11,807 nt of DNA from Promethearchaeota archaeon (GTDB lineage: Archaea; Asgardarchaeota; Lokiarchaeia; Sigyniarchaeales; SOKP01): positions 1 through 11,807 of the forward strand of contig JBHLLT010000050.1 of NCBI GenBank assembly GCA_048938855.1, written 5' to 3'. Each line of letters begins with the position of its first letter. Positions within the stretch are counted from its first letter, which is position 1. A model generated the notes under the pieces. That model saw nothing but the letters and a program-made list of their open reading frames with translations. It was not told the origin of the DNA and did no database searches. This document shows positions 2,088-11,500 of this stretch, one piece after another. The translations under genes were made by a program, and so were the position numbers.

Positions 2088-3929
2088 TTATGTTTCTTCG
2101 TCAGATTTGATTAAATCTTTCTTATCCTCATCAATATTAACTTCGTGTTCGATTTCATATTTCTTCGCATCATCTACATCTTTTCTCATAAGGATTTCTC
2201 TTCGAGATGCTACGTATTTATTAGGTTTAAATTTTAGAACTGGTATTCCTGTATAAATCCAGCCAGGTTCAAGAACTTGGTCAGTTGTAGTAGTGGAAAT
2301 TGCACCAACTATTGTTTCTTTACCTATGATTGTTCCGGGTACAATAGTTGTATGGCCTCCGACCATTACATAATCATCAAATATTACTTTTTTAATGATT
2401 AAATATTTGCCAATCACCATAGAAGACATAATTGTTGCTCCCTGACCGATTAAGTTTTTCCTGCCAAATTTGATGAATTCACCATCGCACCAAGTATCGT
2501 TAAGATGACTGGACATATCCATGTTAATCCCAAATAATTTAAAAACAAGTACATCTAACCATGGAAATGGAGAATATCGCATAAACCATAAAACTATCTT
2601 TTTTAATTCAGTTCTTAACATCCAGAATTCAAAATCCTTATCACCAATCTCAGCTTTAAATACACCTTCTTTAGGTTTATGGATTAAATTAATGAGAATT
2701 AAGAACAACCAGCAAAAGAGCATACAGGAAAAAATAAAAAAATAAATTGAACCAAAAATGGTAAATGGAAGAAATAAAATAACAGTTAACCAATTTCCTC
2801 CAGAAAGATACCAATACCAAAATATTGAAATTATTAAACCTGATAGCCAAAAAATAGGGATATAAACAGCAAGAAATTTCAAATTTACTCTACTGATAGC
2901 AGAACTTGTAGCAAAATCAATTTCTAGATCTTTTTCTGTTAAACTTTCAACATCTATTGGAGTTTCGGGTAATTGATTAATCAATTCTGGAACAAATTGT
3001 TTTCTTTCTTCAAGTTCTTTAGCTTTTAACTTATTTAATAAATCTTTATGCATATATCCTTTAATATTTTCGTTTTTCTCTAAGTCTTTTACTGTTACAC
3101 CTAGATATTTAATCAATTTTTTTCTAAATATGCGTCTTAATGGCATACCCCAATAATAATTGATTTGATCAGGTTTCCCTATAATACTGTGCTTGGTCGC
3201 GCATGCTAAGGGAAGCATATATGAATTATCCCGAACTTCGCACCCTGGTCCAATTAAATTCGTTGTCGCACCAGTAACATTGTCACCTACTTTAACTTTA
3301 AAATACGAGATATTTCCGAATATCCCTTCCACTACATGAGTTGCGAAGGCAGAGTTTACTCCTAAATAACAATTTTCCCCAAATTCGAGAAATTTATCAT
3401 TTACAACAGATTCCTCTAAGACGGTTCCTTTCCCTATTTTGCTTGTCCCTACAAAATTAAAAAACCAATTACTCAACCAAGGAAAAACTCCTTTATTAAA
3501 TGCATTTTTTCCATATTTAATCATAAACCCTCGAATATGATAATAATTTGCTGCTCTGCTGCTAATATTTCGCGGAATTATTCCTTCTTTTGATGGGGAT
3601 ACTTTTTCAGATATTTTCCAAAAGATTTTAGTAGATATTCCTATGAGAAGCAAATGTAGTAAATAGCAACCAATTAGAACAAAGGGCATTAAAAGAAATG
3701 TAATTAAGGGCTCCAATTGAAAAAAAATAAGGAAAAAATTCGTTGTTTCTAAAAAAATTGGAATAAAAAATTGAAGAAAATACCAAAAAAAGAAAACACC
3801 AGGAACTACCCATGAACTATAGAAAATTATGAAAAAAATAAAAATGTAAATATGATATTGGAGTTTTATCTCTTCCTTTATTATCCCGTCAGGATTTCTT
3901 GACTTTTTTTTTTCTGGTTTTTCAGTCAT
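2088..3929 (-). CDS. Membrane protein with two [2TM + hexapeptide-repeat LbH acyltransferase-like] modules
   Basis: 613 aa. Hydrophobic helix pairs near residues 25-100 and 350-415, each followed by a (P/S)KEG motif, hexapeptide repeats (IGKGTV, FGENCYLG, VGDNVT; FGRKNLIG, IGKETIVG) and a terminal YxGxP. Module 1 has THVVEG (His198). Confidence 0.85.
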   Translation of the reverse strand: MTEKPEKKKSRNPDGIIKEEIKLQYHIYIFIFFIIFYSSWVVPGVFFFWYFLQFFIPIFLETTNFFLIFFQLEPLITFLLMPFVLIGCYLLHLLLIGISTKIFWKISEKVSPSKEGIIPRNISSRAANYYHIRGFMIKYGKNAFNKGVFPWLSNWFFNFVGTSKIGKGTVLEESVVNDKFLEFGENCYLGVNSAFATHVVEGIFGNISYFKVKVGDNVTGATTNLIGPGCEVRDNSYMLPLACATKHSIIGKPDQINYYWGMPLRRIFRKKLIKYLGVTVKDLEKNENIKGYMHKDLLNKLKAKELEERKQFVPELINQLPETPIDVESLTEKDLEIDFATSSAISRVNLKFLAVYIPIFWLSGLIISIFWYWYLSGGNWLTVILFLPFTIFGSIYFFIFSCMLFCWLFLILINLIHKPKEGVFKAEIGDKDFEFWMLRTELKKIVLWFMRYSPFPWLDVLVFKLFGINMDMSSHLNDTWCDGEFIKFGRKNLIGQGATIMSSMVIGKYLIIKKVIFDDYVMVGGHTTIVPGTIIGKETIVGAISTTTTDQVLEPGWIYTGIPVLKFKPNKYVASRREILMRKDVDDAKKYEIEHEVNIDEDKKDLIKSDEET

Positions 3930-3979
3930 TATTTAAGTAACACTAAAAATTATCTTTATTCTCCTATTATTTTTTCTTA

Positions 3980-4930
3980 TTAGATGTTAAATCCATCATC
4001 TATATCATCCCATTCTTCTGTAGCAAGATCGAATCTTTTCTTCTCTTTCTCTTTCTTTTCTTTTTTCATCTCACGGCGATCTTTACGTGTTAATTCATCA
4101 TATCGCCGAGTATACATTTGCTCATATTTTTCTCTCAAGGCTTCAACATCTTCAACATGCCCGATTTTATCTTCTAACCCATCTTCAAAAAAATAGTTTC
4201 TTTTAAACTTTTTAGCTGGAATTCCAGCATAAATATAACCTTTTTCTAAGTCTTGTCCTACAGTTGTTACTGAATTTGCTGCTAGGATACAATTATATCC
4301 AATATGAGTTCCAGGCATAACTATTGCATGTGACCCTATTCGTACATTATCCTCAATAATCGTTTTTCTGATTATTAATAGATTCCCTATTATCACTGCA
4401 GATTGTACAATCGCTCCCTGTCCTACTACGACATCTTTCCCGAATTCTATAAATTCAGTATCGACCCAGCCTTCAAATAAAGAATTGCTAATTTTTGTTT
4501 TTACTCCAAATGTCTTAAAGCATATATTATCCATAATCCCTGGGAATGGAAATCTATGAGCAAGCCAAATTGGCCAACGTTTAATAGTATTTCTTAGACT
4601 CCAATATTGATAATCACGATCTTCTGGAACTCTTAAAAATACTCCTTCTCGGGGTTTATGTATTGCATTAACAATAAGTAGAAGGAGTTTAGCAAAAAAA
4701 ATTCCAGAAAATATAATTGTTATATACATTAAAACACATAAAAGTGGAAGGAATGTATAAAAATGAACTGGTCTATCATATCTCCACAAAAAATGCCAAT
4801 ACGTCCATAACTCTAAGAGTAAAGGTATGATGCTTGCCCATATCAGGAAAAAGTAAAATAGTAAATAACTTTTCTTTACTAATACAGTTGGTGTAAATGG
4901 ACCAACCCTCATAGTATTAGGAACGCTCAA
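3980..4930 (-). CDS. Membrane protein with a single [2TM + LbH acyltransferase-like] module
   Basis: 316 aa with a TTG start and GAGGT about 10 nt upstream. Two TM helices, HKPREGVF, hexapeptide repeats (FGKDVVVG, IEDNVRIG, IGYNCILA), YAGIPA and a charged C-terminal tail. Clearly homologous to module 2 of its neighbours. Confidence 0.85.
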   Translation of the reverse strand: MSVPNTMRVGPFTPTVLVKKSYLLFYFFLIWASIIPLLLELWTYWHFLWRYDRPVHFYTFLPLLCVLMYITIIFSGIFFAKLLLLIVNAIHKPREGVFLRVPEDRDYQYWSLRNTIKRWPIWLAHRFPFPGIMDNICFKTFGVKTKISNSLFEGWVDTEFIEFGKDVVVGQGAIVQSAVIIGNLLIIRKTIIEDNVRIGSHAIVMPGTHIGYNCILAANSVTTVGQDLEKGYIYAGIPAKKFKRNYFFEDGLEDKIGHVEDVEALREKYEQMYTRRYDELTRKDRREMKKEKKEKEKKRFDLATEEWDDIDDGFNI

Positions 4931-5082
4931 TTTTCTTCTACCTCTTCATTTATTTTAATAAAACATGAATTATAATATATTATGGCAAACATAAGGATGT
5001 ATAAATGAAACTGGAGACTGACTTCTTCTTTAATAACTTCATTATTGTCAGGAGGATCATCTTCTTCAGAATCTTTAATCAT
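4927..5082 (-). pseudogene. 51-aa internally deleted remnant (or microprotein) of a further two-module LbH membrane paralog
   Basis: Manual translation: MIKDSEEDDPPDNNEVIKEEVSLQFHLYILMFAIIYYNSCFIKINEEVEEN*. VIKEEVSLQFHLYILMFAIIYYNS matches IIKEEIKLQYHIYIFIFFIIFYSS of the 613-aa protein, and the tail FIKINEE resembles its C-terminus LIKSDEE. The TGA overlaps the next TTG (TTGA). Confidence 0.75.
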
Positions 5083-5219
5083 TTCTACCCAACATTCCAA
5101 GCTCTAAATTAATTATTATAAATCTTATTCTATTAAAAAGCAATTGAAACTTATTTACTTTAGTAGATATTTTTTTTTCCTTTTAAATATATTATTTGCA
5201 CGAAAAATAATAAAATCTC
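5083..5219. promoter_or_regulatory. Divergent AT-rich promoter region
   Basis: Lies between divergent starts (5082 minus, 5220 plus). TATA-like boxes at about 5113-5122 (ttattataaa) and 5181-5190 (ttttaaatat); exact elements cannot be assigned. Confidence 0.4.
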
Positions 5220-5615
5220 ATGAAAAATCTATGTGAAAATTGCGGAGAGTGTTGTATAGGAACAGAAATGATATTATCTCCTCACGACATTGATTTAATA
5301 ATAAAATATTATCCGAATAAGATAACCAAAAAACAGTTTGTATTAAAAAATGAAGATGGTAATTATCAAATCAAAAATGTTGAAAATCACTGCGTATTTT
5401 TAGACTTATCAACAAAAAAATGCAAAATATATAAAAATCGTCCTCAAGGATGTAGATATTATCCTCTTATATACGATTTCCAAAAAGGTAAGTGTACCTT
5501 TGATAAAGATTGCCCTAGAACTCATTTATTTTATCAAAATAGGAGGATTTTAAATGAAACGTGTAAAAATTTAAAGGATTTTATTAAGGACCAATTAAAA
5601 TTTGTTTTAGATTAA
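5220..5615 (+). CDS. YkgJ family (CxxCxxCC) cysteine-cluster protein, putative Zn/Fe-S binding
   Basis: CENCGECC, CVFLD, CKIYKNRPQGCRYYP and a later CxxxxxCP. The stop overlaps the stop of the convergent gene (5612-5615). Confidence 0.9.
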   Translation: MKNLCENCGECCIGTEMILSPHDIDLIIKYYPNKITKKQFVLKNEDGNYQIKNVENHCVFLDLSTKKCKIYKNRPQGCRYYPLIYDFQKGKCTFDKDCPRTHLFYQNRRILNETCKNLKDFIKDQLKFVLD

Positions 5616-7378
5616 ACAAGATCTTTTTTATCTTCTTCAACATTAATATCTTGATCAATTTCAAACTTCTTTTCTTTAATAACGTCTCTCTTTATTATTT
5701 TATCGCGACGTTGCTCTGCATATTTATTTTTCTTCAATTTGACCACAGGCATTCCAAAATACACCCATCCTGGTTCTAAAACTTGATCATATACACTATA
5801 TGATAGGGCTCCAACTAAAGTGTCTTTTCCTATAATTGTACCTGGTACAATCGTGGATTCCCCTCCAACAAGAACGTAATCTCCAAATATAACTTTTTTA
5901 ATAATAAGATATTTACCAATAACCATCGAAGACATAATTGTTGCTCCCTGACCAATTAATACTCTCCTTCCGAAATGAATGAACTCAGTATCACACCAGG
6001 AATCATATAAAGCACAAGAAAGACTCATGTTTATGCCAAACCATTTAAAAACTAATATATCCATCCACGGTAGGGGCCAATTTCTTACAAGCCATAATAC
6101 AATTTTCTTTAATTCTGTTCTTAAGCACCAGAATTCGAAATCATGGTTACCTTTTTCTGCTTTAAAAACTCCTTCTTTTGGTTTATGAATTAAATTTATT
6201 AAAGTTAGAAATAATTTACTAAGGAATAGACATCCTACAATAAAGATAAACCACAAAATAAATATCATAACTGGGAGAAAGAAGACAAACAATATTCCAT
6301 TTATAGCATAAAAAGAATAGACATAAAATATTATGGCATCCAACATTCCTGAAAGCCAAAAAATTGGGATATAGATAATTAAAAATTTTATATTGATTCG
6401 GCTTATTGCGCTACTTGTGACAAAATCAATAGCTAAATCTTTATCTTTTTTTTCATCTAGGACTTCTTTAACTGTTTGGGTTGGTTCAAGATTTTCTGCT
6501 ATTGGGTTTAAAGTTTCTGGATCTATTTTCAGATAGTTTTTCACATTTCTTTTGGATACTTTGCTTAAGGGTCTGGCACCACTTGAAAAATAATAATTCT
6601 TTCCTTGTAGTAAACTATGTTTTGGAGTGGAAGCCATAGGGAGTAAAATTGCATTATCTTTTATCTCAGTACCAGGAGCTATTAAGTTTACTGCTGAGGC
6701 AGTAACATTGTCTCCCAGTTTAACCTTAAAATAGGTAATATTTCCAAAAATTCCATCAATCATATGACTAGAAAATGCTGAATTAACTCCGAGATAGCAA
6801 TTTTTTCCAATCTCTAAATATTTATCATTAACTACAGATTCCTCTATGGTAGTACCTTTCCCTATTTTGCTAACCTTCATAAAATTATAAAGCCAAGGTG
6901 TCAACCATGGGAATAATCCTTTAGAAAACGCATTTTTTGGGTATTTTAATATAAAAGATCTTATGTGGTAATAGTTTAATGTCTTACTTGGGAAGTTTCT
7001 AGGGATAATCCCTGGTTGAGATGGAGATTTTTTTTCAGTTAAAGCCCAAAACAAGCGAGCAATAAAACCAATTAGAAATAATCGAAGTAAATAACACCCT
7101 ATAATAACTAAAGGCATAGTTATTAGTGCTATAAGAGGTTTTAAATCAATAAAAATTGAAAAGACGTTTGGTGATTCTAAAAATGAAGGTATAAAAAAGA
7201 AAAAAAAATAAGTCATGAAGAAAATAGCGGGAGTCAAATTTGAAATTAAATATATTGTAAATAGTACAAAAAGATACCAAAAGTATTGGAATTTAACGTC
7301 TTCTTTAATAATTTTTTTTTCGGAACCTTTTTTACGGACGATTGTTTCAGATTTTTCCATATCAATCCTCGGAATCAT
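5612..7378 (-). CDS. Second two-module [2TM + LbH] membrane protein, paralog of 2088-3929
   Basis: Collinear with the 613-aa protein: GIIPRN, YYHIR, EESVVNDK, SHMIDGIFGNI, TSSAISR, HKPKEGVFKAE, and an identical IGQGATIMSSMVIGKYLIIKKVIF. The true start may be the ATG at 7360 (MEKSET), which has GAGGA just upstream. Confidence 0.85.
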   Translation of the reverse strand: MIPRIDMEKSETIVRKKGSEKKIIKEDVKFQYFWYLFVLFTIYLISNLTPAIFFMTYFFFFFIPSFLESPNVFSIFIDLKPLIALITMPLVIIGCYLLRLFLIGFIARLFWALTEKKSPSQPGIIPRNFPSKTLNYYHIRSFILKYPKNAFSKGLFPWLTPWLYNFMKVSKIGKGTTIEESVVNDKYLEIGKNCYLGVNSAFSSHMIDGIFGNITYFKVKLGDNVTASAVNLIAPGTEIKDNAILLPMASTPKHSLLQGKNYYFSSGARPLSKVSKRNVKNYLKIDPETLNPIAENLEPTQTVKEVLDEKKDKDLAIDFVTSSAISRINIKFLIIYIPIFWLSGMLDAIIFYVYSFYAINGILFVFFLPVMIFILWFIFIVGCLFLSKLFLTLINLIHKPKEGVFKAEKGNHDFEFWCLRTELKKIVLWLVRNWPLPWMDILVFKWFGINMSLSCALYDSWCDTEFIHFGRRVLIGQGATIMSSMVIGKYLIIKKVIFGDYVLVGGESTIVPGTIIGKDTLVGALSYSVYDQVLEPGWVYFGMPVVKLKKNKYAEQRRDKIIKRDVIKEKKFEIDQDINVEEDKKDLV

Positions 7379-7430: not shown

Positions 7431-8438
7431 CTAAATGGTTATAATTGTTTTTATATGGTCTCTACTTAAATTGTAGGATTCAAATGCTTTATTTATATCA
7501 TCTAAAGAGAATCTCTTTGATATCAAGCCATCAACCTTAATTTCACCGGATTCCAACCCTTCAATTGCTTTATTAAATGGTCCACACCTACTACTGTATA
7601 GTGTGAGCTCACGAACTACAATATCAGTAAGATCTATTGGAGTTTCAATTCCATGTGTGCTTTTTACATGAATTTTTCCTCTGGTTCTACAAGATTCTGT
7701 AACATCTTTTAAAGCTTTAGGATTTCCAGTCGTATCTACAACAATATCTGCACCTAATCCTTTAGTGAGATTCTTAATTTCTTTTGGAATATTTTTACAC
7801 TCTAATCTATTTATAAGATATTGGGCTCCATATTTCTTAGCTAAATCAAGTTTAATATTTGAACCATCTATCACAATTAACTCTAATCCTTTAGACAGAG
7901 CTACCTGAGTAACTAGTAATCCTAACTTTCCTTGGCCAAATATAGCTAATATATGATCCTTCTTGCCAATTGGCATCATTTCAAAAATCTGATAAGCCGC
8001 AGCAAGGGGTTCAATGAATGTAGCTTCATCATATGTTATTATATCAGGTATTTCATGTAAGAGATATGACTCTAAGGCAATATATTCCGCAAGGGCACCA
8101 TCAATATCAATACCAATTGCTTTTCGAGATACACATTGAGTATATAATCCTTGTTTGCAGTAATAACAATTAAAATCAACATTACTATTTATTTCAGATG
8201 TTACTCGTTTGTTAAGCCATGAATTTTTAACATCTTTACCTAATTTCACTACTTCCCCCACAAGTTCATGGCCAAGAATTATAGGGGTCGGAGTTTCTAA
8301 ATTTCCTCGTATAATTGCTAAGTCTGTTCCACATAAACCTACAGCTTTTACACGAACTAGAACTTGAGAATTACTTATAATCGGTTCAGCAATCATTTTA
8401 ATTTTAATTTCCTTATTATCAAATACTGCTGCTTTCAT
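7431..8438 (-). CDS. Zinc-dependent medium-chain alcohol dehydrogenase (MDR family)
   Basis: Catalytic Zn ligands GLCGTD and GHELVG, structural Zn lobe D-x2-C-x2-C-x7-C, EPLAAA, Rossmann motif GQGKLG and SRCGPF. Confidence 0.93.
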   Translation of the reverse strand: MKAAVFDNKEIKIKMIAEPIISNSQVLVRVKAVGLCGTDLAIIRGNLETPTPIILGHELVGEVVKLGKDVKNSWLNKRVTSEINSNVDFNCYYCKQGLYTQCVSRKAIGIDIDGALAEYIALESYLLHEIPDIITYDEATFIEPLAAAYQIFEMMPIGKKDHILAIFGQGKLGLLVTQVALSKGLELIVIDGSNIKLDLAKKYGAQYLINRLECKNIPKEIKNLTKGLGADIVVDTTGNPKALKDVTESCRTRGKIHVKSTHGIETPIDLTDIVVRELTLYSSRCGPFNKAIEGLESGEIKVDGLISKRFSLDDINKAFESYNLSRDHIKTIITI

Positions 8439-8650: not shown

Positions 8651-9199
8651 ATGAAGAAAACAATTTTAAAATGGGAAGTAATAGGAATTATATTTGTTGT
8701 TTTAATTGGAGCTTTATTCCATTTTATGTTTGCATTATTGAATTATTGGAGTCCTCTAGGGGTTGTTTTTCCTGTTAATGAAAGTGTTTGGGAGCATCTT
8801 AAGCTACCATATTGGCCATTAATCATATACTCACTGATTGAATATAATTTCATTAAAGATAAAGCTAATAATTTAATTATAGGCAAACTAATTTCATTCC
8901 TAATAAGTATTGGTACGATTTTAATTGTCTTTTATGCATATACTGCCATACTTGGAGCAGAATTACTAATTGTGGATATATTAAGCTTTGTACTAGGCGT
9001 CGTTATTGGACAATTGGTAAGTTATAAAATCTTGACGATAAAAGAATTATCTAAATGGTATAGCATTACCTCTTGGATAATTTTCATTGGATTTGGAGTG
9101 TTATTTGCAGTTTTTACATATTTTCCTCCACATTTACCAATATTTCAGGATTCTGAGACTGGTCTATATGGTATTATTACGCATTTTATAACATTGTAG
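8651..9199 (+). CDS. Multi-pass membrane protein, DUF6512-like
   Basis: 182 aa with about 5 hydrophobic helices. Motifs GxLxHF, PVNESVWEHLKL and C-terminal FTYxPPxxPIFxD, which I recall as the DUF6512 signature (not verified by search). Confidence 0.75.
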   Translation: MKKTILKWEVIGIIFVVLIGALFHFMFALLNYWSPLGVVFPVNESVWEHLKLPYWPLIIYSLIEYNFIKDKANNLIIGKLISFLISIGTILIVFYAYTAILGAELLIVDILSFVLGVVIGQLVSYKILTIKELSKWYSITSWIIFIGFGVLFAVFTYFPPHLPIFQDSETGLYGIITHFITL

Positions 9200-9246: not shown

Positions 9247-10890
9247 TTGATTGCATTGAATTTCTTCGATTTTGATTTAGGAGTTCAAAACATATTCGAT
9301 AAGCAATTTTCCAATATTCCTTCTACAGACTGGAAAAAATGGCTTGATATATCTTCAAAAGAAGAGTATGAGGATCTTAGTTTAAGAAATTCTGGATTAT
9401 CATCAATTGATGATATATTTGGGAGGATATTAAAAGATAAACTAAATTCGAAATATCTATCTGTTGAACGACATAGTTATTTAGAGAAATATAAGGGATC
9501 TAGAACTTTAATTATATGTCACAGTTCAGGTACCACGAATAGCGATTTAGCTGCCCTTAAATGGCTCCCTATGACAGAAAAAATCATTCAACATTATTGG
9601 GCTCCAGGAATGCAAGCTATCTTCGAATCAAGTGGACTAAATAGAAAGAGTTCAGTAATAATATTTGTTCCATCCCGAATTAAAATAGACGGGCTTCAAT
9701 CATACCAGGGTCAAGATTACATTTCATTATATTCATCAGAGTTTTCGCAAAGAGTCATGCTTTCAATAATAAAACCCCTTTCCTATACTTTTTTTGAATA
9801 CAAAAATTCAAAGAATTTAGACGTAATATCAAAAATCCTTAGTTTAGATAATGTTTCTGTTATTTCTGCTCCAGCGATCACTATTTTAGGATGGGCAGAT
9901 TTGGAAAAGTTTCAGATAGGAATAAAAAAATCATTAGAGAATTTACCAAAAGAAAAAAGCTCCCTTCTTGAAGAATTACTAGTAATTATAAAAAAGGAGG
10001 GTGTTGAGAAAGGGGCTAAAATTATCCAGGCAAAATTATCTGAAAAATTTTCTAAAGCAACAATTATTTTTAGTATTAGTTCCCTTTCAGAACAAAATTG
10101 GATACTTATCCGTAAATTTATGAAATGGCAAAAAGGAAAAGAAAAATTTACGAATCTCTATGTAGCATCAGAGATTGGGCCATTTGCGGCTAGTATCTCA
10201 AAAGGAGATTATGAACTTTCTCGTTTAAATAGAATGTATGTTTTTCCATTAACATTAGCTGTTCTTGAATATAAAAAAAAAAGAAATTTAATATCAAATT
10301 TTTCAGATCAGATAGGAAGGCTTTATGTTTCACGAATGGGAGATTCTGGAGCTTTAATAAATATTGATATTGGAGATATTATTACTATTAAAAAATCAGA
10401 GGGATTGCCTCAAATTGATGGGACTATCATTAGATCAAGTTTTGAATTAAAATATAATGTAAAATTATCCGATAATATTAAGAAACCAGATAAATATAAT
10501 ATTTCAGCAGGAGACTTTTTCTCATTTGATAACTTTAATATAAGTCATCCAAGAAATTTATTGCATTGTTTGAAACGTAGCTGCAAATTAGAAACCGATG
10601 CTCTACTGTTAATTCAAGAATCGAATCAATCTTGGAAATTAATATTACCGTCAAATTTAGATGAGAAATGTTTTGATGATAAAATTATAGAAATTATATC
10701 GAAATGTCCAACTCAAAAGGAATTATATCAAGCAATTGTGAATAATTTTATAAAAATTAATTTTATTGAAGATCAACCAATTGATTTCTTAGCCACACGA
10801 CAAGAGATTTTGAAATTGGTGCGTAATGGGCAAAAGCCTAAAGGAATACTAAAAAAATGGCCGTTATATGTCATGTCAACCTTAAAATAA
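9247..10890 (+). CDS. GH3-like / ANL-superfamily adenylate-forming enzyme (acyl-AMP ligase)
   Basis: P-loop HSSGTT (SSGTT at 9523-9537) followed by KWLPMT (GH3-type KxxPxT), YVASEIG, DIGDII and a Lys-containing C-terminal GQKPKGILKKWP. Start is uncertain (TTG 9247 or in-frame TTG 9256). Confidence 0.7.
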   Translation: MIALNFFDFDLGVQNIFDKQFSNIPSTDWKKWLDISSKEEYEDLSLRNSGLSSIDDIFGRILKDKLNSKYLSVERHSYLEKYKGSRTLIICHSSGTTNSDLAALKWLPMTEKIIQHYWAPGMQAIFESSGLNRKSSVIIFVPSRIKIDGLQSYQGQDYISLYSSEFSQRVMLSIIKPLSYTFFEYKNSKNLDVISKILSLDNVSVISAPAITILGWADLEKFQIGIKKSLENLPKEKSSLLEELLVIIKKEGVEKGAKIIQAKLSEKFSKATIIFSISSLSEQNWILIRKFMKWQKGKEKFTNLYVASEIGPFAASISKGDYELSRLNRMYVFPLTLAVLEYKKKRNLISNFSDQIGRLYVSRMGDSGALINIDIGDIITIKKSEGLPQIDGTIIRSSFELKYNVKLSDNIKKPDKYNISAGDFFSFDNFNISHPRNLLHCLKRSCKLETDALLLIQESNQSWKLILPSNLDEKCFDDKIIEIISKCPTQKELYQAIVNNFIKINFIEDQPIDFLATRQEILKLVRNGQKPKGILKKWPLYVMSTLK

Positions 10891-11023: not shown

Positions 11024-11500
11024 ATGAAAGATAAATTCAATTTGGTTGGCACAAAAATCGAACAGTTTAGTTTACCAAATTCTAGAGGCGAAACAATCAA
11101 TATTAGAGACTTAGAAAATAAAAAAAACGTAATACTTATATTATTTAGAAATATAAATTGACCTTTTTGTCGATGGCATGCTGCGAGGTTAAGACGGGAT
11201 CTTGAAAAATTTGAAGAATTGGATGGGTATTTGTATCCAATTTTAGTGGATAATGAAAATAATGCAAAAAAAATGGAACAGAAATATGCTAGAAAGTACG
11301 CTATATTTTATGATGAATCAGAAAAAGTAGCCAAGATGTTAAAACAAGAAATAAGATGGATAAAATTTGGTCGTATGCCTGGATTATTAGTAATTGATAA
11401 GAAAGGGATCATTCAATATGCCTATTACGGTAAGAATATGCATGATATACCAGAAAACAATGAAATTTTAAAGGTTCTTGAAAAAATTAATGAAGTTTAA
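11024..11500 (+). CDS. Peroxiredoxin-like (AhpC/TSA, thioredoxin fold) probable selenoprotein with UxxC motif
   Basis: ATG 11024 (preceded by GAAGTGA) is in frame with the listed 11219-11500 ORF. It reads MKDKFNLVGTKIEQFSLPNSRGETINIRDLENKKNVILILFRNIN-TGA(11159-11161)-PFCRWHAARLRRDLEKFEELDG...MPGLLVIDKKGIIQYAYYG..., 158 aa. The TGA falls exactly on the first Cys of the CPFC motif. Confidence 0.88.

Follow-up and report, generated by a model that had tools for sequence, protein, structure and literature searches.

Split genes for a probable heterotrimer-like membrane acyltransferase in Asgard archaea

One-module and two-module genes in the window

The stretch of DNA analyzed here, called the window below, is the entire contig C10 (JBHLLT010000050.1, 11.8 kb) of the Promethearchaeota archaeon assembly GCA_048938855.1, a genome of 3.95 Mb with 30% G+C. 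Its minus strand carries three genes of one family, each composed of modules with two transmembrane (TM) helices, a linker, and a left-handed beta-helix (LbH). Five modules are present in all (1 + 2 + 2), and they fall into three types, N, C, and S, that are defined in the next section. The genes, their modules, and a relic of a further gene are as follows (aa, amino acids; ORF, open reading frame).

2088-3929, minus strand: 613-aa NC(a) gene, two modules
2940..3929, minus strand: N-type module of NC(a), approximately residues 1-330, in which a loop insertion comes after the invariant His198 (codon 3336-3338)
2088..2939, minus strand: C-type module of NC(a), approximately residues 331-613, with Ser-Ser at the His column
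3980..4930, minus strand: S-type one-module gene, 316 aa, TTG start; two TM helices, linker, and LbH, no His in the catalytic column
4927..5082, minus strand: 51-aa relic ORF, the N-terminus of a deleted NC gene, whose stop codon overlaps the TTG start of the S gene
5612-7378, minus strand: 588-aa NC(b) gene, two modules
6434..7378, minus strand: N-type module of NC(b), with His205 (codon 6764-6766)
5612..6433, minus strand: C-type module of NC(b), a paralogue that has no S gene of its own

The 613-aa and 588-aa proteins share 55% identity along their entire length. The 316-aa protein aligns with the C-terminal halves of the two long proteins at 36% identity (E values of 2e-50 and 3e-50) and with their N-terminal halves at 22% identity (5e-9 and 1e-9). 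Because this short protein matches both halves, the count of 1 + 2 + 2 modules is real. Orthologues of the 316-aa protein begin M-S-V-P-N at the identical codon, and the relic ORF shares 50% identity across 40 aa with the N-terminal end of an orthologous two-module protein (E 3e-12).

Every module has two long membrane helices, as judged by hydropathy and AlphaFold2, and carries a P-x-E/x-G motif after the second helix, an aromatic...R segment, and an LbH that ends Y-x-G-x-P. The Pfam family Hexapep matches the C-terminal LbH in each of the three proteins, and matches to PF00132 at E values of 2.4e-10 and 8.7e-10 indicate that hexapeptide repeats are present. The initial annotation, which was made from the letters alone, had described the one-module gene, the two two-module genes, the relic, and this module composition, and all of these hold up against the ORF coordinates, the pairwise identities, the relic match, and the predicted helices. 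It had also placed the single-module gene upstream of the two-module gene. This is true of the window, but not as a general order, since the single-module gene lies downstream in most relatives.

Three module clades in one cyclic order

Searches with the two-module protein yielded 429 homologues, the best 120 of which are 58-96% identical to it, approximately 615 aa long, and from Asgard archaea wherever a source is named. We assembled 72 Asgard loci from species-representative genomes and typed all of their ORFs with module queries, such that N denotes the first module of the long proteins, C the second module, and S the short protein. In a tree of 114 modules, N, C, and S form clades with support of 98-100. 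The C clade is sister to the S clade, and modules from split and fused genes are intermixed within the clades.

The genes for these modules are tightly coupled. NC adjoins S in 59 of the 72 loci, and the junction is most often a 4-nucleotide overlap (27 cases), followed by a 14-nucleotide overlap (8). Fully split, coupled triplets occur 17 times and always in the order N, C, S. Among the locus patterns, “NC NC S” is the most frequent (21 loci), followed by “N C S NC S” (9), “NC S” (7), and “NC NC NC S” (5). In several genomes an SN fusion of approximately 540 aa precedes a separate C gene, and the library of representative sequences includes a natural SNC triple fusion of 797 aa (P0124) that is recorded from at least two Promethearchaeota metagenome-assembled genomes. 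NC+S, N+C+S, SN+C, and SNC are cyclic readings of a single order, N-C-S, in all split states, which is what a closed three-part assembly predicts.

An S protein and an NC protein collectively supply three modules, each a TM pair plus an LbH, and therefore six TM helices, whereas P0124 supplies the same set in one chain. The proposal of the initial annotation that the 1 + 2 genes are parts of one unit with three modules and six TM helices is thus supported by the adjacency, the overlaps, the fixed cyclic order, and the SNC and SN fusions. The additional NC genes in “NC NC S” loci lack an S gene of their own, and it is plausible that the two-module subunits are exchangeable. In two further loci (L074:168-3863 and L087:1882-5570), the split cluster has two successive N genes (N, N, C, S), an arrangement that suggests alternative catalytic subunits for one C+S pair.

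The S-before-NC gene order of the window is a derived state. An intact NC-S-NC arrangement persists at locus L026 (5154-9845) and is a tandem-duplication intermediate for the order seen in the window and in loci L027, L028, and L047. Thus, both the window order and the relic are explained by tandem duplication followed by deletion.

Conservation of the family is strong, with 55-80% identity between genera and three to five sets per genome. In a sample of 121 genomes from the phylum, matches to the NC family at E <= 1e-40 were restricted to the taxonomic families f1 (15 of 15 genomes) and f2 (2 of 2).

Predicted fold of the three-module unit

An AlphaFold2 model of the P0124 triple fusion has a mean predicted local distance difference test score (pLDDT) of 85.8 and a predicted template-modelling score (pTM) of 0.69. 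This model was built on a checked, colinear alignment of 62 rows; a 103-row alignment and a second set of rows collapsed all modules onto one. Disorder is confined to the N-terminus and the two inter-module linkers. Each module consists of a TM helix, a second TM helix, a short beta-strand, two helices, and an LbH. The same order of elements was published for AlphaFold/RoseTTAFold models of the terminal domain of PosA (PMC10522769), which makes delta-poly-L-ornithine and is treated below together with the epsilon-poly-L-lysine synthetase Pls. In the PosA model, three five-turn LbHs pack with approximately threefold symmetry on six bent membrane helices (PMC10522769).

Single LbHs from the model match coenzyme A (CoA)-dependent acyltransferases with Z scores of 14-16.6 (Foldseek, VIA-align), and alignments to the maltose/galactoside acetyltransferases (MAT/GAT) extend across all of the soluble portion of a module, or approximately 150 residues. 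A Foldseek search with the triple-fusion model returned no solved chain that matches the whole architecture. Likewise, searches of PDB sequences with the single proteins and with a module profile recovered LbH parts only and no Pls structure, and the matches of the profile are limited to the LbH, from profile position 135 onward.

A single candidate catalytic histidine

One column of the LbH distinguishes the module types. It holds a histidine in 136 of 136 N modules, Ser-Ser in 136 of 136 C modules, and a histidine in none of 81 S modules. The N-module histidine and the loop after it align, although weakly (domain E 0.84), with the A-Y-H and following loop of the Clostridioides difficile maltose O-acetyltransferase 3srt. 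In maltose and galactoside acetyltransferases, the histidine at the A-Y-H position is the catalytic residue. A comparable asymmetry is present in stand-alone bacterial three-module proteins, where only one module carries the histidine in four of the five examined (P0194, P0199, P0262, and P0226). Given that the residue is kept solely in N modules, an asymmetric complex with one catalytic interface is the most economical reading.

It could be argued instead that each product forms its own homo-oligomer, with S assembling as a homotrimer and NC proteins forming LbH trimers between chains, such that the paralogues are separate membrane O- or N-acetyltransferases with different substrates. LbH acyltransferases are indeed usually homotrimers, lone N-like genes exist (for example on contig C70 of the source genome, between genes for an MFS transporter and a PIG-L deacetylase), and NC genes outnumber S genes. 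However, an S homotrimer would lack the usual catalytic base, given that C and S modules never carry the histidine. The fixed cyclic order, the overlapping junctions, the SN, NC, and SNC fusions, and the high pTM of the triple fusion also argue against self-sufficient proteins, and we therefore regard such independent enzymes as decidedly unlikely.

Another precedent comes from mitochondrial complex I, in which the gamma-carbonic anhydrase subunits CA1, CA2, and CAL are three diverged LbH paralogues that form one membrane-attached trimer with at most one active site. The N-C-S unit might by analogy be a noncatalytic or carbonic anhydrase-like assembly with a structural or regulatory role in the membrane. 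The best matches of the S protein to PDB sequences include gamma-carbonic anhydrase subunits of complex I, and the carbonic anhydrase module of complex I is a known LbH heterotrimer of paralogues. Nevertheless, the LbHs of C and S have no invariant histidine and that of N has one, so the conserved zinc-ligand histidine triad of gamma-carbonic anhydrases is absent. The strictly conserved single histidine of N points to acyl transfer, and the best structural matches are CoA-dependent acyltransferases. A role of this kind is accordingly very improbable.

Neighboring genes and a possible source of the donor

The plus and minus strands around the three module genes carry the following features.

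5220..5615, plus strand: CxxCxxCC (PF03692) gene between NC(b) and NC(a), syntenic in 63 of 72 loci
7431..8438, minus strand: Zn-dependent alcohol/polyol dehydrogenase gene, syntenic in 55 of 72 loci
8651..9199, plus strand: DUF6512 protein gene, syntenic in 36 of 72 loci
9247..10890, plus strand: gene for a 547-aa protein with an S-S-G-T-T motif, a loosely linked neighbor and candidate donor-activating enzyme

The conserved arrangement at the main locus thus runs 547-aa protein, DUF6512, Zn-dehydrogenase, NC(b), CxxCxxCC, NC(a), S, with the individual neighbors retained in 33-63 of the 72 loci. The CxxCxxCC gene and the Zn-dehydrogenase gene are linked to the module genes by synteny. Near the end of the window, an ORF at 11219-11500 (93 aa) matches only positions 69-142 of the Redoxin profile, indicating that the 5′ part of this gene is missing from the ORF as called. 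This would fit an in-frame TGA upstream that the initial annotation had noted separately.

The three module proteins gave no match to AMP-binding or PP-binding domains. Moreover, neither a PP-binding carrier (PF00550) nor an ACPS/phosphopantetheinyl transferase (PF01648) was found in the source genome, which is 97% complete. A carrier-tethered aminoacyl donor is therefore excluded, and the Pls chemistry cannot run in this organism as it does in bacteria.

Neither Pfam nor PDB sequences match the 547-aa protein, which belongs to a conserved Asgard family, but in its Atlas model it is similar to adenylate-forming enzymes of the PaaK, CapK, and AMP-binding types (template-modelling scores of 0.50-0.58), and its second-ranked feature cluster (score 0.97) has GH3 on 24% of the members. 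One possibility is that the N-C-S unit is a carrier-free, Pls-like polymerase that either builds a polymer with amide linkages, for example a homopoly(amino acid), or decorates a surface polymer, with the PaaK/GH3-like enzyme providing an acyl- or aminoacyl-adenylate in trans. The modules are akin to those of the only studied enzymes with this layout, which polymerize diamino acids, and a protein with an adenylate-forming-like Atlas model is encoded within 8 kb in 33 of the 72 loci. The phyletic patterns do not agree with this proposal, however. The 547-aa family occurs in 11 of 15 f1 genomes but in none of the three from genus g2, which do carry the NC family; it also occurs in 3 of 6 f19 genomes, where the NC family was not found with the query used (E <= 1e-40). 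The other N-C-S sets of the source genome have no adenylating-like neighbor, the genome has no carrier or ACPS, and the Asgard modules are not orthologues of the Pls modules C1, C2, and C3 (see below). We consider a polymerase of this type unlikely. Given the phyletic mismatch and the unrelated neighbors of the other sets, the link to an adenylating enzyme is a lead rather than a finding.

Additional sets in the source genome

At least four further sets or partial sets are present in the source genome, on contigs C63, C24/C41, C74, and C70. Contig C63 carries N+C+S, and contig C24 carries an SN fusion that, together with a separate C gene, probably spans the end of C24 and the start of C41. 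This SN-fusion paralogue (C24:37496-39109, locus L022) lacks an ATG, GTG, or TTG at the start position of its orthologues. Its reading frame opens I-S-L-P-A-S-L-R-V-G on an ATT codon, opposite M-S-V-P-N-T-M-R-V-G of the orthologues, and the ATT may be a noncanonical start or a point change.

The remaining two sets branch deeply. C74:16838-18457 (L023) is a coupled pair with a metallophosphoesterase gene directly after it. C70:27954-28757 (L024) is the lone, histidine-bearing N-like module noted above, which lies between the MFS transporter gene and the gene for the PIG-L family deacetylase.

A proposed pseudo-threefold membrane acyltransferase

We propose that the products of these genes are subunits of an LbH acyltransferase that is anchored in the membrane, has pseudo-threefold symmetry, and contains one active site, and we hold this to be probably correct. 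Each module would be a cytoplasm-facing LbH that resembles a whole maltose or galactoside acetyltransferase, with a hairpin of two membrane helices as its anchor. Most likely, the beta-helices of one module of each type (N, C, and S) lie side by side above a bundle of six membrane helices, in the manner of LbH homotrimers. In the window, this assembly would be formed by the 613-aa NC protein and the 316-aa S protein, and the 588-aa NC(b) protein probably shares this S subunit. The single active site would lie at an N interface, and C and S would contribute scaffolding and substrate binding. A CoA thioester is the probable donor, or else some other activated carboxyl for which a carrier protein is not required, and the acceptor would be an amine or hydroxyl at or in the membrane. 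Module homology and types, gene order, the fusions, the histidine asymmetry, the fold, and the kinship with Pls/PosA modules are results of the analysis, whereas the 1:1:1 assembly, the position of the active site, the donor, and the acceptor are proposals.

Several observations weigh against this proposal or soften parts of it. The AlphaFold2 model of the 613-aa protein itself, which drew on 40 close homologues, has a pLDDT of 59.8 and is too poor for judging domain packing, so the side-by-side arrangement of the three LbHs is one that we infer from the pTM of the triple fusion, from the fusions, and from the published PosA model. NC genes outnumber S genes, as in the 21 “NC NC S” loci, and a strict 1:1:1 ratio is thus not kept at the gene level. 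The alignment that equates the N-module histidine with that of maltose acetyltransferase is weak. A hidden Markov model of the TM and linker region alone gave no significant match to Pls-like proteins at the scale of the whole library. Finally, neighbors vary between paralogous loci: the other N-C-S sets of the source genome have unrelated neighbors, and no conserved partner was found among them. Overall, this is a real and strongly conserved system, and most likely a heterotrimer-like membrane acyltransferase.

A broader scenario can also be envisioned for Loki-type Asgard archaea. Several carrier-independent, heterotrimeric membrane LbH machines might build or decorate amide- or ester-linked surface polymers or lipids, with swappable NC subunits on a common S subunit setting the specificity and a PaaK/GH3-like enzyme supplying the donor. 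Such machines would have arisen in parallel to Pls/PosA from a single-module, homotrimeric ancestor. We offer this scenario as speculation and consider it unlikely.

Relationship to Pls/PosA and other known systems

The three window proteins score 36.4, 38.8, and 46.2 bits against TIGR02353, in the LbH part only and far below the curated cut-off of 423.1, and no protein of the source genome exceeds this cut-off. Membership in the Pls terminal-domain family can be dismissed. Kinship is another matter. We searched 1.84 billion representative sequences with a module profile made from 43 sequences and obtained 139 proteins at E <= 1e-30. The top 150 matches include stand-alone bacterial triples of 650-680 aa that match in three stretches, one such triple fused to a short-chain dehydrogenase/reductase, and two nonribosomal peptide synthetases. 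One match, P0268, is a Pls/PosA-family synthetase with adenylation (A) and thiolation (T) domains (TIGR02353, 471 bits), which the profile matches over its positions 30-269 with an E value of 1.6e-29. In a profile-profile comparison with hhalign, the segments preceding the LbH align with a probability of 80% (E 1.4e-5, 72 columns), with the linker motifs in register. The profile match and the linker alignment together indicate that the modules are relatives of Pls-type modules rather than just any LbH, and on this point the initial annotation was right in setting them apart from ordinary, full-length sugar O-acetyltransferases.

A tree of modules clarifies the nature of this relationship. All 34 Asgard modules fall on one side of a branch, with 21 bacterial and Pls modules on the other (support 95 by the Shimodaira–Hasegawa-like approximate likelihood ratio test); the tree has long branches and came from a quick search. 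Bacterial modules m1, m2, and m3 are orthologous among themselves. The separation of the Asgard modules from all bacterial and Pls modules implies that the three-part layout arose in parallel, from a single-module ancestor. The tree thus overturns the earlier suggestion that the 1 + 2 genes rebuild Pls. Two simpler derivations were likewise rejected on the basis of this tree: the unit is not a broken-up Pls, and N, C, and S do not map one-to-one onto C1, C2, and C3, as the modules are not orthologous. Judged in this way, the unit is Pls/PosA-related and is predicted to work like the Pls/PosA terminal domain, yet is not a member of that family.

Searches for longer homologues (1074-3065 aa) found none, and our literature searches found no description of a stand-alone or split archaeal form. 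To our knowledge, no structure of the membrane polymerizing domain of Pls/PosA has been solved, nor is it known which of its residues are catalytic. The published PosA survey was restricted to proteins of 1100-1800 aa (PMC10522769).

Among enzymes with the same fold, MAT/GAT, the sugar-nucleotide N-acetyltransferases PglD, QdtC, AntD, and VioB, and serine acetyltransferase share the LbH with the Asgard modules at the Z scores given above. Unlike the Asgard modules, these enzymes are soluble homotrimers with three identical active sites and no membrane hairpin, and sequence similarity to them is confined to the LbH. Scores against the YvoF-type heptaprenylglyceryl phosphate O-acetyltransferase model (NF058585) are 27.9-58.5 bits, below its cut-off of 300. 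The gamma-carbonic anhydrase heterotrimer of complex I has a different chemistry (zinc hydration), has no such TM hairpins, and is not a close relative.

Stand-alone bacterial triples of approximately 650-680 aa, such as the Elusimicrobiota protein MBK8576353.1 (P0255), resemble the Asgard unit in having three modules and no A or T domains. However, they are single chains and score 157-184 bits against TIGR02353, unlike the split Asgard unit. Another carrier-less architecture of the wider family is seen in P0226, a metagenomic protein of 960 aa in which a short-chain dehydrogenase is fused to a three-module, Pls-like domain.

The closest known system is the C-terminal domain of Pls and PosA (TM1-2/C1, TM3-4/C2, TM5-6/C3), which serves in the synthesis of epsilon-poly-L-lysine and delta-poly-L-ornithine, respectively. 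This domain likewise comprises three modules, each with two TM helices, a beta-strand, two helices, and an LbH of approximately five turns. In contrast, the Asgard unit lacks A and T domains, is distributed over two or three genes, and is built from larger modules (approximately 300 aa versus approximately 230 aa). The unit would represent a prominent family of membrane enzymes in those archaea that are nearest to eukaryotes and about whose envelope chemistry little is known, and it would be a clear example of how a homotrimer can become, by parallel evolution, a heterotrimer of fixed order. Compared with Pls and PosA, the same kind of layout is here naturally taken apart into three distinct subunits, only one of which carries a candidate catalytic histidine, and it could therefore serve as a genetically separable model for how pseudo-trimeric LbH machines work.

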